Shown here piece after piece: positions 3,843 through 11,251 of a DNA stretch of 47,124 bases. The notes under the pieces are model-generated. The model did no database searches, had not been told where the DNA came from, and saw only the letters and a list, made by a program, of their open reading frames with translations. Position 1 is the first letter of the stretch, and every line of letters starts with the position of its first letter. Source of the DNA: a virus (lineage: Duplodnaviria > Heunggongvirae > Uroviricota > Caudoviricetes); IMG/VR virus record IMGVR_UViG_2939521961_000002, one strand, 5' to 3'. Position numbers and translations under genes: made by a program.

Positions 3843-4169
3843 ATGACTAAAAATACTCGTTTTTCCCCCGAAGTCCGTCAGCGGGCGATTCGTATGGTTC
3901 TGGAAAGTCAGGATGAATATGACTCACAGTGGGCGGCAATTTGTTCCATTGCCCCAAAGATTGGCTGTACGCCGGAGACTCTGCGTGTCTGGGTTCGCCA
4001 GCATGAGCGGGATACCGGGGGCGGTGATGGTGGGCTCACCAGTGCTGAACGTCAGCGTCTGAAAGAGCTGGAACGTGAAAATCGTGAACTGCGCCGCAGT
4101 AACGATATCCTTCGCCAGGCTTCCGCTTATTTTGCGAAGGCGGAGTTCGACCGCCTCTGGAAAAAATGA
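3843..4169 (+). CDS. IS3-family transposase OrfA (HTH)
   Basis: 108 aa [30 protein letters not shown]...; leucine-zipper-like C-terminus; overlaps orfB by 4 nt at an A-rich site typical of -1 frameshifting. Confidence 0.85.
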
Positions 4170-5056
4170 TGCCACTGCTGGATAAGCTGCGTGAGCAGTA
4201 CGGGGTCGGACCGGTATGCAGCGAACTGCATATTGCCCCGTCAACGTATTACCATTGTCAGCAACAGCGACATCATCCGGATAAACGCAGTGCCCGTGCG
4301 CAGCACGATGACTGGCTGAAGAAAGAGATACAGCGCGTATACGATGAAAATCACCAGGTATACGGTGTGCGTAAAGTCTGGCGTCAGTTGTTACGGGAAG
4401 GTATCAGAGTGGCCAGATGCACTGTGGCACGTCTCATGGCAGTTATGGGACTTGCCGGTGTTCTCCGGGGTAAAAAGGTCCGCACTACCGTCAGCCGGAA
4501 AGCCGTTGCCGCATGCGACCGCGTAAACCGTCAGTTCGTGGCAGAACGTCCAGACCAGTTGTGGGTGGCTGATTTTACCTGGGTAAGCACATGGCAGGGC
4601 TTCGTTTATGTGGCGTTCATCATTGATGTGTTCGCCGGATACATCGTGGGATGGCAGGTCTCATCATCCATGGAAACAACATTCGTGCTGGATGCACTGG
4701 AGCAGGCGTTGTGGGCCCGTCGGCCGTCCGGCACAATCCATCACAGTGATAAAGGTTCTCAGTATGTATCGCTGGCCTACACGCAGCGGCTTAAGGAAGC
4801 CGGATTACTGGCATCAACAGGGAGTACTGGCGACTCGTATGACAACGCGATGGCTGAGAGCATCAATGGTCTTTACAAAGCGGAGGTAATACACCGTAAT
4901 AGCTGGAAAAACCGGACAGAAGTGGAACTGGCCACACTAACGTGGGTGGACTGGTATAACAATCGACGATTGCTGGAAAGGCTGGGCCATATTCCTCCGG
5001 CAGAAGCAGAAAAAGCTTATTATGCTTCCATCGGAAATAATGATCTGGCAGCCTGA
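4166..5056 (+). CDS. IS3-family transposase OrfB (DDE integrase core)
   Basis: 296 aa with DDE-type catalytic core (…WVADFT…HSDKGSQY…YDNAMAES…). Confidence 0.85.
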
Positions 5057-5421
5057 GTTCACAGATAAAATACTCTCCAGGAAACCCGGGGCGGTTCAGC
5101 ATGTACAGGATTCATTGTCCTGCTCAAAGTCCATGCCATCAAACTGCTGGTTTTCATTGATGATGCGGGACCAGCCATCAACGCCCACCACCGGAACAAT
5201 GCCGTTCTGCTTATCAGGGAAGGCGTAAATTTCTTTCGTCCACGGATTAAGGCCGTACTGGTTGGCGACGATCAACAATGCGATGAACTGCGCATCGCTG
5301 GCATCACCTTTAAATGCCGTCTGGCGAAGAGTGGTGATCAGTTCCTGTGGGTCGACAGAATCCATGCCGACACGTTCAGCCAGCTTCCCTGCCAGCGTTG
5401 CGAGTGCTGTACTCATCCGTT

Positions 5422-6277: not shown

Positions 6278-6350
6278 ATTTAAAACTATAGTTGTTTTAT
6301 CGTCAACAACAAAAGTTGTTTTGTTGGTTGTTTTAGATATAACTGGTTGT
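6278..6350 (-). promoter_or_regulatory. Putative pL promoter with OL operator repeats
   Basis: On the minus strand TTGACG (plus 6301..6306), 17-nt spacer, TTAAAT (plus 6278..6283); three GTTGTTTT half-site repeats resembling the AACAACC motifs at OR. Confidence 0.35.
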
Positions 6351-6449
6351 ATTTAAGATGGATTTATTTTGTGACTTGCATCGCATAGCGATAACTGAAG
6401 CGAGGTCGTGGTGGTTTTTTTGAACGGTGTATGATGAGGGGAGGGCAAA

Positions 6450-6476
6450 AGAAAACCCGGCACGGTGGCCGGGTTT
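6450..6476 (-). terminator. Intrinsic terminator downstream of the cI-linked operon
   Basis: Hairpin CCCGGC-ACGGTG-GCCGGG flanked by A-run and T-run (AAAACCCGGCACGGTGGCCGGGTTT); followed by TTTT on the minus strand. Confidence 0.5.
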
Positions 6477-6550
6477 AGATGATTGGTTAAGAGCGAGGGT
6501 AATGGGGAATGAAAAATCGCTTTACCTAATGCAAGGGTGCGAGCATTTTC

Positions 6551-6994
6551 TTAAGCACTAAAGAAAAAGTACATTGATAGCTTATAAAGTCCTGTTCCTG
6601 CAGCGATGATTGCTGGAACACCAAGCAATACCGCAAGCTTTGCGTCTGAAATCTTTCTATCGACAGCATCACTTGATGGCTTGTTTGTTAAGGATTCTTT
6701 TATAGAGTCCAGACGTGCAAGAATAGTTATCATATTTTTGTCGATAGCTTTAACGTCTGTTTTAAGTTCATCAACGTCTCGTTTGATATGAGCAACATCG
6801 GACTCCAGTTTTGCAACTTTTTCAGGCATGTTATCACTCCCAGACCCACTGCTACCACTTGATTGTAGCATGTCCCATCTTTTTCCAGATATACCTGCTA
6901 GCTGGGAAGACGCACTGGAGTGCAAACAAAATGATTCTGCCGCCTTTGCAATTTTATCATTTAGGTTTGGAGCTTCGTAATAATCGTGTTTCAT
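6551..6994 (-). CDS. Hypothetical tail-anchored coiled-coil membrane protein (rexB position)
   Basis: 147 aa; Ser/Gly linker, heptad-like coiled coil (KVAKLESDVAHIKRDVDELKTDVKAIDKN...), single C-terminal hydrophobic helix (AKLAVLLGVPAIIAAGTGLY); 12 nt after upstream ORF stop, no clear SD (possible coupling). Confidence 0.55.
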   Translation of the reverse strand: MKHDYYEAPNLNDKIAKAAESFCLHSSASSQLAGISGKRWDMLQSSGSSGSGSDNMPEKVAKLESDVAHIKRDVDELKTDVKAIDKNMITILARLDSIKESLTNKPSSDAVDRKISDAKLAVLLGVPAIIAAGTGLYKLSMYFFFSA

Positions 6995-7006
6995 AATTAA
7001 TTACGA

Positions 7007-7270
7007 TTAGTTTGTTTTAGCTTTGTCATGCTGGTCGCGAATGAAGTCAGCCAATTTAAGCATCAATTCTTCGGGCATTCTAATGGTTGCAATGTTGTAC
7101 TTTATGTTCTCAACATCGTCACTTTCATCAACAGGCCATTCAGTTACATTATGAAAAAAAGAAATTGAACCTAGGCGCTGAGAGCCGTCACCAAACGAAG
7201 AGTAGCCAAACGCGTCGGCGTATGCATCGACACAGTTATTTGATTTTTTAACAAGTGTTTTATTACTCAT
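7007..7270 (-). CDS. Hypothetical small protein with C-terminal ribbon-helix-helix-like motif (rexA position)
   Basis: 87 aa; C-terminus IATIRMPEELMLKLADFIRDQ resembles an RHH beta-strand plus helix; AAAGG 5 nt upstream of ATG; 81 nt downstream of cI stop, same strand. Confidence 0.55.
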   Translation of the reverse strand: MSNKTLVKKSNNCVDAYADAFGYSSFGDGSQRLGSISFFHNVTEWPVDESDDVENIKYNIATIRMPEELMLKLADFIRDQHDKAKTN

Positions 7271-7351
7271 TTTTGCCTTTCCCGTAATGTTATTTTTTAT
7301 AAGGTATTTTCTTCAGCGTATTACCCAAAAGCCTCATCAACACGCGGCTGA

Positions 7352-8041
7352 TTATCCGTGTTTTCTGTACGTCTGCGGCATGCTCCCAATAACCTTACCG
7401 AATATGAATACCCGGTTCATCTCGTCTTTCTCGATAGGGTCCCACGGTGAGTAGCTCTTGTTATCAGAGATAACCAGCAGTTTATCCTTCATCATTTGCA
7501 GGCGCTTTACATGGGCGGTGTCGTCGTACAGAAATGCATAGATACCATCACCGTCGAAAGATTTAACCGTGATATCAACGAACAGCAGATCACCTGGTTC
7601 GATCGTTCCTGACATGCTGTCACCACGCACGTTAATGATGCGGATATTTTCTGCCTTCCTACCATCGAACATGTGACGAGCATCGTCAAACGAGTACTCA
7701 ACCGAGCGTAGAACTTCTACAAACTCACGGTTGATGACTCCCGGCCCAGCACTGACTTCTATATCAAGAACGTCAATCTTGAAGTATTTGGAATGGCTGA
7801 CAGTTGATTGTATTGGTTGCACTGTACTGTCTGACATATTTCCAACGCCAGAAGATAACCATTCTGCGCGCACACCCAAAGCGTTCGCGATCTCCACGAT
7901 TTTAGTTGTTTGATTAGCTTTCCCTGTTTCGATTTTCTGAATAGCAGCCTGGCTAACCCCGACCAAATCCCCAAGCGCCTTTTGTGTAAGGCCTCGCGCT
8001 AATCTGGCTTCTTTAAGTCTTTCTGAGAGTGTTGTTTTCAT
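7352..8041 (-). CDS. cI: cI-type repressor (N-terminal HTH, C-terminal LexA/S24-like self-cleavage domain)
   Basis: 229 aa from internal ATG (MKTTLSERLKEARLARGLTQKALGDLVGVSQAAIQKIETGK...); C-terminal ...NVRGDSMSGT...HVKRL... Ser/Lys dyad-like motifs; start lies at a leaderless-type PRM as in lambda. Confidence 0.85.
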   Translation of the reverse strand: MKTTLSERLKEARLARGLTQKALGDLVGVSQAAIQKIETGKANQTTKIVEIANALGVRAEWLSSGVGNMSDSTVQPIQSTVSHSKYFKIDVLDIEVSAGPGVINREFVEVLRSVEYSFDDARHMFDGRKAENIRIINVRGDSMSGTIEPGDLLFVDITVKSFDGDGIYAFLYDDTAHVKRLQMMKDKLLVISDNKSYSPWDPIEKDEMNRVFIFGKVIGSMPQTYRKHG

Positions 8042-8120
8042 AGTCCAAATGTACAACCAAGGTTTTATTCCATCAAACGAAAATGGTTGTTGACTAAAAA
8101 CAACCATAGTTTTAATCTTG
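8042..8120. promoter_or_regulatory. Immunity operator/promoter region (OR, PRM, PR)
   Basis: Palindromic operator ATGGTTGTT-N7-AACAACCAT (8083..8107); PR -35 TTGACT (8089..8094) with downstream -10-like TTAATC/TAATCT; PRM on the minus strand TTGATG (plus 8071..8076) - 17 nt - TACATT (plus 8048..8053) placing the start at the cI ATG. Confidence 0.55.
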
Positions 8121-8145: not shown

Positions 8146-8376
8146 ATGAACCCAGCTATCAAAACAGCGATCAATATCGTTGGTTCACAAAAGAAACTGG
8201 GCGCTGCCTGCGAAGTTTCACAGCAGGCCGTCTATAAGTGGCTTCACAACAAAGCAAAGGTATCCCCTGAACATGTCGGCAGCATTGTTACGGCTACTGG
8301 TGGAGTAGTGAAGGCATACCAGATTCGCCCGGATCTTCCGAAGTTGTTTCCACACACCGAAAAGAACGCAGCTTAA
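8146..8376 (+). CDS. cro: Cro-like HTH repressor (YdaS/Cro family)
   Basis: 76 aa; GGAGG 6 nt upstream; divergent from cI across the operator region; HTH GAACEVSQQAVYKWL. Confidence 0.7.
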   Translation: MNPAIKTAINIVGSQKKLGAACEVSQQAVYKWLHNKAKVSPEHVGSIVTATGGVVKAYQIRPDLPKLFPHTEKNAA

Positions 8377-8445: not shown

Positions 8446-8985
8446 ATGCAACCACTTCCATACCAACAGACTAGCGGATTTAGCCCGACTGCGGTGATAA
8501 ATCGTTCTCAAACAAAACAGGTGCCAGGCCACGAAAAAATCCGTGATGCCGTCCGCGCCTGGTCGGCTGTAGATAATCAGGATGTCGTTGCCACACTCAT
8601 TGTGAATGAGTATCGGGAGCAGGGCGGCGGCACCATCGATTTCCCTGATGATGTCAGCCGTACACGCCAGAAGCTGTTCCGCTTCCTCGATAACAAATTC
8701 GATTCTGAAAAATACCGAAATAACGTGCGTGAACTGACCCCGGCAATTCTGGCGGTACTACCGCTGGAATATCGCGGTTACCTGGTTGAGCAGGATAGCT
8801 TCATGGCTAGGTTGGCTGAAATGGAAAAGGAACTCAGTGAGGCAAAACAGGCTGTCATTCTCAACGCACCACGCCACCAGAAACTGAAGGAAATTAGTGA
8901 AGGTATTGTGTCGATGTTTCGTGTGGACCCAGAGCTGGCTGGTCCATTGATGGCGATGGTTACTACCATGCTGGGGGCGATATGA
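8446..8985 (+). CDS. Putative CII-like / YdaT-family early regulator
   Basis: 179 aa with strong RBS (AAGGAG); position equivalent to cII between cro and O; family assignment from weak recall only. Confidence 0.35.
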   Translation: MQPLPYQQTSGFSPTAVINRSQTKQVPGHEKIRDAVRAWSAVDNQDVVATLIVNEYREQGGGTIDFPDDVSRTRQKLFRFLDNKFDSEKYRNNVRELTPAILAVLPLEYRGYLVEQDSFMARLAEMEKELSEAKQAVILNAPRHQKLKEISEGIVSMFRVDPELAGPLMAMVTTMLGAI

Positions 8986-10903: not shown

Positions 10904-11251
10904 TTAAAGCTCAGAAAGCTGTGATAATATTTTTTCTGGAGTGGTTTCGTTGGAAATGCTAAATAATACAGCACCTTTGACTGATTCATCTCTCATTTCA
11001 ATTTCACATGAATTATGGTTGTATGAGATTGCATAATTTTTTAATGTTCTTTCGCTTTGCCACCACACCATATTTGCAAGACTTCCGTTATACGTTCTTA
11101 TCTCGATTGATCCGGGCAGGGCTTTCCAGATAACACCTCCTAGCAATGTAAGAGCGGCTGCACCAACATTTTTTGCATGATGGTTAGAACGTTCCATTAC
11201 CCCTTCAGCATAACGATGAAGAATCTCTATGTCAGTCGCTTTGATAGTCAT
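10904..11251 (-). CDS. Hypothetical orphan protein (115 aa) in AT-rich island
   Basis: Reverse-oriented relative to replication genes; about 30% GC on hand count; candidate extended -10 (TGcTATATT) about 50 nt upstream on the minus strand; no family recognised. Confidence 0.5.
   Translation of the reverse strand: MTIKATDIEILHRYAEGVMERSNHHAKNVGAAALTLLGGVIWKALPGSIEIRTYNGSLANMVWWQSERTLKNYAISYNHNSCEIEMRDESVKGAVLFSISNETTPEKILSQLSEL

Follow-up and report, generated by a model that had tools for sequence, protein, structure and literature searches.

Two small genes located directly behind the cI-type repressor gene of a lambdoid prophage (IMG/VR virus record IMGVR_UViG_2939521961_000002, the entire 47,124-nucleotide stretch of which was analyzed and is referred to here as 'the window') were found to form a compact module within an exchangeable slot, in which a conserved and apparently membrane-anchored protein (the 147-residue product of gene B) is encoded immediately after a variable partner (in this case the 87-residue product of gene A). 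The reading that we favor, tentatively, is that the pair represents an accessory ('moron') cassette of the repressor operon, expressed in the lysogen, which would most likely serve in phage exclusion or abortive infection as a module of two components. Among the known repressor-linked accessory or exclusion cassettes of prophages, what is new here are the uncharacterized proteins themselves and their unusual modular design, with its apparent nested isoforms. The module is 100% identical to sequence in the chromosomes of Escherichia coli O26:H11 strain 11368 and many other enterohaemorrhagic E. coli (EHEC), was found in 205 of 5426 complete E. coli genomes (approximately 4%), and is enriched in prophages of EHEC serogroups O26, O103 and O111.

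On the minus strand of the window, the genes run in the order cI (7352..8107), an 81-nucleotide spacer (7271..7351) that contains the Shine-Dalgarno sequence GGGAAAGG, gene A (7007..7270), a spacer of 12 nucleotides, gene B (6551..6994 in its long form) and an intrinsic terminator (6443..6476), beyond which lie approximately 370 bp of conserved non-coding DNA and then kil, gam and a bet gene disrupted by an insertion sequence (IS). The terminator, which is the equivalent of lambda t-imm, consists of a stem-loop (6476..6453) with a 9-bp stem, including 6 G-C pairs, followed by the T-run TCTTTTG, and the 131 nucleotides around it fold with a z-score of -3.85 relative to shuffled sequences. A first-pass annotation of the window had described two tightly linked, co-oriented open reading frames (ORFs) closed by a hairpin and T-run, and had placed them in the slot that holds rexA and rexB in lambda; the frames and their spacing proved to be exactly as described, the terminator was confirmed, and the pair does lie, oriented with cI and closed by that terminator, between the repressor and the early-left operon. 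The same annotation had noted a shift toward AT-rich composition, which holds in direction, while its hand-counted guanine-plus-cytosine (GC) content of 42-45% was slightly too high: the module measures 39.3% GC, versus 45.1% for cI, 56.7% for the structural region and 52.0% for the whole window. Since a minus-strand scan of the spacer between cI and gene A recovered neither a terminator nor a consensus promoter, the parsimonious reading is that genes A and B would be co-transcribed with cI. Both frames are taken to be genuine genes because the ratio of nonsynonymous to synonymous substitution rates (dN/dS) is low across alleles: 0.05-0.11 for gene A, including an allele of the pair with 81% DNA identity, and 0.24 overall for gene B (0.125 for its core, and approximately 0.5 for residues 1-55, or 0.2 when compared with an allele from Leclercia).

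The exchangeable nature of the slot became apparent from a BLAST comparison with four sister phages (PhiR34_1, PhiR26_1, PhiR47_2 and PhiR68_2) that possess the same immunity region. Homology to these phages ends at 7351-7354, at the stop codon of cI, and restarts at 6473-6475, within the terminator hairpin, such that the breakpoints delimit a cassette (6474..7351) running from the cI stop codon to a terminator that the sister phages retain with other cargo or with none. In PhiR34_1 the slot is reduced to a spacer of approximately 105 bp without cargo; in PhiR26_1 it contains a gene for a BamE-like lipoprotein; in PhiR68_2 it contains two genes for unknown proteins of 341 and 149 residues; and in PhiR47_2 it contains GevT and GevA, which match the PADLOC models PDC-M11A and PDC-M11B of a candidate defence system (E = 2e-133 and 7e-52) and served as a positive control for the PADLOC searches. 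In other E. coli prophages, the allele of the pair with 81% DNA identity fills this slot downstream of repressors of two distinct types. These alternatives indicate that genes A and B are one of several cargos found between cI and the terminator. The interval between cI and N has been described as a mosaic hotspot that houses the abortive-infection systems rexAB and bstA (PMC8585504). In PhiR47_2 (locus L001, 2682-4110), GevT is annotated as a toxin and GevA, which has an ASCH domain, as its antitoxin; a literature search for the two names returned nothing relevant.

The product of gene B was described at first pass as a protein with a Ser/Gly linker, a heptad-like coiled coil and one C-terminal hydrophobic helix, and the analysis upheld that description in each part. 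Its layout comprises an N-terminal extension (residues 1-55) that includes the linker, a coiled coil (residues 56-103, 6686..6829), an NKPS hinge, and a C-terminal transmembrane (TM) helix (residues 118-136, AKLAVLLGVPAIIAAGTGL, 6587..6643) followed by approximately 11 residues. A structural model places helices at residues 11-31, 56-103 and 109-146 and disorder in the Ser/Gly stretch at 32-55; the coiled-coil helix has predicted local distance difference test (pLDDT) values of 75-82, and the model is of low confidence elsewhere (pLDDT 59). From residue 60 to residue 102 the protein displays unbroken 3-4 heptads, with 14 of 16 a and d positions occupied by L, I, V or M in a single register (V60, V67, V74, V81, M88, L95 and L102 at position a; L63, I70, L77, I84, I91 and I98 at position d), and the Kyte-Doolittle (KD) hydrophobicity over 19 residues peaks at 1.80 across residues 118-136. 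Homologs from many Enterobacterales retain only the region from approximately residue 56 to residue 147, their N-termini being unrelated and of variable length; the invariant positions include K105, P106, S107, I115, S116, P127, G133 and T134, the last three being unchanged in all of 23 homologs. A survey of IMG/VR, covering 80 loci, yielded 46 distinct gene B proteins and 38 complete members, and a TM helix with a KD value of at least 1.7 was found in 38 of those 38. Like gene B itself, these 38 homologs also combine the absence of a signal peptide with a single TM helix no more than about 30 residues from the C-terminus and a heptad-bearing cytoplasmic region. By these features gene B is predicted to be a tail-anchored coiled-coil protein inserted in the membrane.

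Searches of sequence databases with gene B returned a full-strength match only to phrog_3556, a family of unknown function (E = 1.5e-58, covering profile positions 128-267 of 276). All other matches (to XhlA, Lpp, FlaC, SMC-like defence proteins and coiled coils in the PDB, many of the latter trimeric) were sub-threshold and attributable to the heptads, as were those to PADLOC-DB 2.0.0 (PbeC, LmuB and JetC, at E values of 0.004 or above). The weak resemblance to XhlA nevertheless raises the question of whether gene B might be a lysis accessory that aids the holin or endolysin upon induction. Both are families of small phage proteins in which a coiled coil at the N-terminus is followed by one TM helix at the C-terminus. 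Gene B weakly matches two PHROGs labelled 'hemolysin' (XhlA-type), 1193 at E = 1.4e-4 and 937 at E = 1.2e-3, and the Pfam XhlA family (PF10779) at E = 0.23, but the Pfam match scores 12.1 bits, far below the cut-off of 34.7, and the matches fall on the heptad repeats. Genes for XhlA sit in the lysis cassettes of phages of Gram-positive hosts, whereas the gene B family sits behind repressors; none of the loci examined has lysis genes beside gene B, and the immunity operon would be shut off or diluted at induction. A lysis role of this type is therefore exceedingly improbable.

Several features of gene B indicate that its frame may be read from two starts. Residue 56, which marks the beginning of the coiled coil, is a methionine whose codon is preceded, at a spacing of 7 nucleotides, by the Shine-Dalgarno-like sequence GGGAG (6837..6841), itself embedded in the Gly-Ser codons of the linker. 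In the allele with 81% identity that residue is a valine encoded by GTG, and the GGGAG is kept even though Gly codons nearby differ. Throughout the family, an in-frame ATG or GTG with a motif of the GGAG, GGGA or GGGG type 4-11 nucleotides upstream (in most cases 8) was found in all 38 complete members, located exactly at the boundary between N-extension and coiled coil and 46-78 codons ahead of the TM helix, versus a background of 0.5% per codon for such start-plus-Shine-Dalgarno combinations inside the ORFs of the same loci. A Shine-Dalgarno-like motif precedes 37 of 37 internal starts, as compared to 20 of 37 full-length starts. Gene callers have repeatedly annotated the short form (91 versus 146 residues, 62 versus 126, and 135 versus 207), and for one sister allele (P0014) they did so independently in 99 index blocks. 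The N-extension also appears to be coding in its own right, because its frame remains open in every family despite an off-frame stop density of 7.7% per codon, because it is under purifying selection, and because it abuts the stop codon of the partner gene, the two being separated by -23 to +29 nucleotides. The likeliest interpretation of these sequence features is that gene B would give rise to two nested products, the long form and a short form of 92 residues (Met56 to the stop codon, 6551..6829) that consists of the coiled coil and TM helix only; the Shine-Dalgarno sequence of the latter and the Gly-Gly linker of the former may be a single sequence that serves two purposes.

The gene that precedes gene B proved to be far less constant than gene B itself. 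A tightly linked, co-oriented gene occupies that position in 42 of 47 distinct combinations, and BLAST sorts these partners into eight or more families with no relation to one another, among them proteins of 87 residues, 93 residues, approximately 140-156 residues and approximately 150 residues, and a 119-residue type with Cys pairs. Homology between the 87-residue and 93-residue partners was considered and rejected, as hhalign assigned it probabilities of 0.1-0.2%; the top alignment displays a common C-terminal motif, 'K-x-x-[IV]-A-[ST]-[IV]-x-[LM] plus helix', which is a hint only. N-extensions vary in type and length in step with the partner family. The tails of gene B, in contrast, fall into at least four types (KKPS...LLGVPAIIA, as found here; ...SKILDALNGLVLK; ...NKQIxWTI; and ...NLYLKKP), each of which is found with several partner families, and all of which have in common the junction 'M-L-E-A-R-V-A-K-L-E-S-D-V-x-Y-I-R-R-D'. 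This reassortment was read by inspection of the combination table rather than from adjusted Rand index values, since single-linkage clustering by BLAST was too coarse, the poly-Gly stretch and the conserved junction linking everything together. Because the N-extension follows the partner while the tails reassort, the units of exchange are, as judged from that table, the partner plus N-extension on one side and the core tail on the other, with the breakpoint at the internal start.

In an E. coli P22-like prophage (P0070; locus L003, 6001-6405), a UPF_BP1-type gene A and gene B are fused in frame to produce a 134-residue hybrid that keeps the TM tail. This fusion was rejected as a natural A-B fusion of the 'Rosetta-stone' kind, as it corresponds to a deletion between direct repeats of 15-18 nucleotides (GATGTTGAAAACAT...), which encode 'DVENIK' in both the gene A and the gene B proteins. 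In a further IMG/VR locus (L044, 1022-1321 and 1351-1761), the partner is itself a 99-residue coiled coil with a C-terminal TM helix, such that two B-like genes stand in tandem.

The product of gene A, an acidic (pI 4.96) and soluble protein, had been proposed at first pass to contain a ribbon-helix-helix (RHH) element of the type found in antitoxins, and that proposal did not survive structure prediction. The AlphaFold (AF2) model (mean pLDDT 80) consists of an antiparallel sheet of three strands (residues 20-26, 33-46 and 54-66) followed by a single C-terminal helix (residues 67-86). The 'IATIRM' stretch on which the RHH idea was based forms the end of the third strand, the model has no second helix, and the 21 residues after that strand appear too few for a helix-loop-helix; no RHH profile in Pfam and no RHH fold was matched. 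At permissive thresholds gene A matched nothing in Pfam, NCBIfam or PADLOC, and it likewise returned nothing from PDB sequences and nothing at E < 0.001 from a fold search of BFVD; the closest known folds listed for it are those of the COMM domain and of PC4/Pur-alpha-like dimerization units that combine a beta-sheet with a helix. It does match phrog_4231, a family of unknown function, over its full length (E = 7e-54), and that family is very small, as 10 relatives were word-indexed and a set of 1.84 billion proteins contained only 8 cluster representatives of it. The earlier statement that neither protein is recognizable as a named defence or toxin-antitoxin protein agrees with the searches of PADLOC, Pfam and NCBIfam.

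A toxin-antitoxin or addiction module, in which gene B would be a membrane toxin neutralized by gene A or by the balance of its isoforms and in which the pair would stabilize the prophage, accounts for a number of these observations: the operon contains two genes with the smaller one first and a spacing of -23 to +29 nucleotides, the single TM helix of gene B is membrane-active in appearance, partner and putative toxin reassort as they do in toxin-antitoxin systems, and the cargo of one sister phage is annotated in those terms. That explanation is unlikely; searches for type II features recovered neither a toxin-antitoxin domain match in Pfam, NCBIfam or PADLOC nor a consensus promoter belonging to the module itself between cI and gene A. 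A further possibility is that the pair encodes a lysogenic-conversion factor that promotes host fitness, such as a stress-related, tail-anchored protein of the ElaB/YqjD type. The coiled coil and C-terminal TM helix of gene B do resemble the layout of tail-anchored inner-membrane proteins, morons often encode host-fitness factors, and the module is, as described above, enriched in EHEC prophages. Gene B has no Pfam match to DUF883/ElaB or to any other family, however, and a variable partner in combination with reassorting tails suggests diversification in an arms race over a housekeeping role, such that a fitness factor is very unlikely.

The genomic positions of the family were examined in a census of 39 non-redundant IMG/VR loci, in which the co-oriented gene directly upstream of the pair was scanned against Pfam. 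That gene was an HTH_3-type regulator in 26 of the 39 loci (14 of these also with Peptidase_S24), a member of the Arc/Mnt family in 4, and a DUF6246 tail-region gene in 3, so that in at least 30 the pair immediately follows a repressor gene of the cI or Mnt/Arc type. One locus (L019) displays the exact lambda arrangement of cI, the pair, and N. In P22-like prophages from Salmonella, E. coli, Serratia and Leclercia the module belongs to the mnt operon, where the start of gene A overlaps the stop codon of mnt by 4-8 nucleotides, and it occupies the interval that holds sieA in P22; in prophages of Raoultella and Pantoea, the pair is inserted among tail genes on the opposite strand. The cI slot, the mnt operon and the tail-region insertion are all classical locations of prophage-expressed genes. 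The P22 gene orf59a, which lies downstream of mnt, was considered as a relative of gene B and rejected, as it encodes an unrelated hydrophilic protein. Some P22-like prophages possess a third small, co-oriented gene after the pair (L008, 5957-6262, and L009, 4044-4349, both from Serratia; L003, 6496-6864, from E. coli), and the Serratia protein has a signal-peptide-like N-terminus (MKKVFALAIIAISFGASA...) and no family match; this gene may be additional cargo or a third component.

The association with repressors also fits an accessory of the lysogeny switch, in which the pair would modulate the maintenance or induction of the prophage, for example through a regulator that is tethered at or released from the membrane. 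The linkage to cI-type or Mnt repressors and the translational coupling to mnt point in that direction, as does the role in the transition from lysogenic to lytic growth with which RexAB is credited (Thomason et al. 2021, as cited in PMC12315714). Against it, the module is dispensable, the same cI being found with an empty slot in viable phages, and it moves among unrelated immunity types (two kinds of cI, and Mnt) and even among tail genes, a mobility that argues against a repressor-specific partner. A role in the switch is thus distinctly unlikely.

The exclusion or abortive-infection reading is preferred, with the reservation stated at the outset, because it is the one suggested jointly by the position in the slot, the linkage to repressors, the effector-like architecture of gene B, the nested start, and a modularity reminiscent of sensor and effector. 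Under that reading, the cassette would be transcribed from the cI promoter in the lysogen, and gene B would be an inner-membrane protein anchored by its tail and oligomerized through its cytoplasmic coiled coil, with the Pro/Gly-containing TM helix as its presumed business end, acting through perturbation of the membrane or interference at the membrane. The long form, with its variable N-extension, would be coupled to gene A, and the short form would supply the core alone from the internal Shine-Dalgarno sequence and ATG; gene A and the N-extension, to which it might bind, would constitute a variable, co-inherited regulatory or sensing half. By titrating or gating the long form, the short one could set a threshold or provide self-immunity.

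A number of points count against this interpretation: (i) neither protein matches any PADLOC model beyond coiled-coil noise; (ii) searches of the literature on the module, including the locus tags ECO26_0579 and ECO26_0580 and both PHROG identifiers, found nothing; (iii) a site downstream of a repressor is suggestive rather than specific, and a lipoprotein cargo that is not a defence gene also fills the slot; (iv) no more than about 11 residues of a tail-anchored protein would reach the periplasm, making a classical block of injection less likely; (v) a Gly-rich linker will by itself yield GGAG-like strings fairly often, and the enrichment of GGA among the local Gly codons (31%, versus a background of 20%) is only moderate; and (vi) the loci compared belong to related phages and are not phylogenetically independent, such that counts like the 30 of 39 do not represent independent events. 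The cassette is accordingly described here as a candidate for anti-phage activity, a status that reflects its sequence and setting.

Comparison with known systems places the module outside RexAB, SieA, XhlA, the RHH antitoxins, the systems in PADLOC and the families of Pfam and NCBIfam; it is a member only of the two PHROGs of unknown function. It resembles lambda RexA/RexB in its slot, its co-orientation with cI, and its pairing of a soluble with an inner-membrane protein, but neither gene A nor gene B displays sequence similarity to the Rex proteins or a corresponding PADLOC match. RexB is a polytopic membrane protein, whereas gene B combines a long coiled coil with only one TM helix, at the C-terminus. 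RexA, a DNA-binding protein of approximately 279 residues (PMC12315714), likewise differs from the 87-residue beta3-alpha product of gene A. A stoichiometry-dependent self-control has been proposed for Rex, and stoichiometric suppression described for RexB (PMC8585504), in parallel to the idea of long and short isoforms of gene B. BstA is similarly encoded downstream of a prophage repressor, presumably under the same promoter, and possesses a built-in self-immunity (PMC8585504), but it differs in being one large protein, associated with DNA and accompanied by a DNA-based anti-BstA element, with neither homology to the present proteins nor a membrane anchor.

P22 SieA, an inner-membrane protein of 162-164 residues that blocks injection, is predicted to have three TM helices and carries the motif FxRYPxEAxxFNK on its cytoplasmic side (PMC10883804). 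Both it and gene B are small inner-membrane proteins of prophages, and the module is found in the mnt-to-gene-16 region of P22-like prophages; gene B, in contrast, has a single TM helix, does not contain the FxRYPxEAxxFNK motif, and would be mostly cytoplasmic. SieA acts alone, and gene B is nearly always accompanied by a partner gene. The sieB gene of P22, an abortive-infection gene, reportedly contains an in-frame internal start from which a shorter polypeptide, Esc, is produced that antagonizes the long form. It is a precedent for isoforms and an antagonism that are hypothetical in the case of gene B, with no sequence relationship expected. A broader proposition would treat the gene B family as the conserved effector of an unrecognized, widespread class of prophage abortive-infection systems with nested isoforms, in which the N-extension and partner would form the phage sensor, the short form would set the threshold or confer self-immunity as Esc does for SieB, and the Shine-Dalgarno sequence of the short form would double as the Gly-Gly linker of the long form; this proposition is possible but doubtful.

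Every lysogen transcribes the slot behind its prophage repressor, and both rexAB and bstA were discovered there; the present family, which is sizeable, makes habitual use of that position in prophages of Escherichia, Salmonella, Serratia, Leclercia, Raoultella, Pantoea, Rahnella and Enterobacter. Its conserved membrane core, its conserved internal start and a sensor-like half that reassorts with effector tails offer handles for experiment, and an exclusion function, if true, would bear upon phage susceptibility and upon the traffic of prophages, including Stx phages, in EHEC.

Several additional features of the window were observed in the course of these analyses. The cI ORF encodes 251 residues and matches HTH_3 and Peptidase_S24 in Pfam, but its true start is likely Met23, at approximately 8041, which would give a protein of 229 residues; the cI annotated in PhiR47_2 has that length and is 99.6% identical. 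The first codons of the longer frame lie within a 25-bp palindrome, ATGGTTGTTGACTAAAAACAACCAT (8083-8107), that is operator-like in appearance, and a related palindrome rich in CAACAA/TTGTTG is found near 6300-6330, the expected place of PL/OL; a repeat search of the window did not recover these operator-like palindromes. An IS3-family element, with orfA (HTH_Tnp_1) and orfB (rve integrase core), abuts a 106-residue N-terminal fragment of RecT/Bet (this region spans 3843-5056 on the plus strand and 5096-5416 on the minus strand); bet is thus interrupted, and the prophage is probably recombination-defective. Opposite the replication genes, within a patch of low GC content (37-42%), a minus-strand ORF of 115 residues (10904-11251) matches PF18315 (E = 6e-20), a family of Vibrio integron-cassette proteins (VCH_CASS14), and is likely another moron. 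Finally, the cro-like gene that runs divergently from cI (8146-8376, plus strand) and the gene in the cII position (8446-8985, plus strand) match the Pfam families 'YdaS_toxin' and 'YdaT_toxin', names that are misleading here, as these genes are ordinary regulators of the Cro and CII positions in this group of lambdoid phages.

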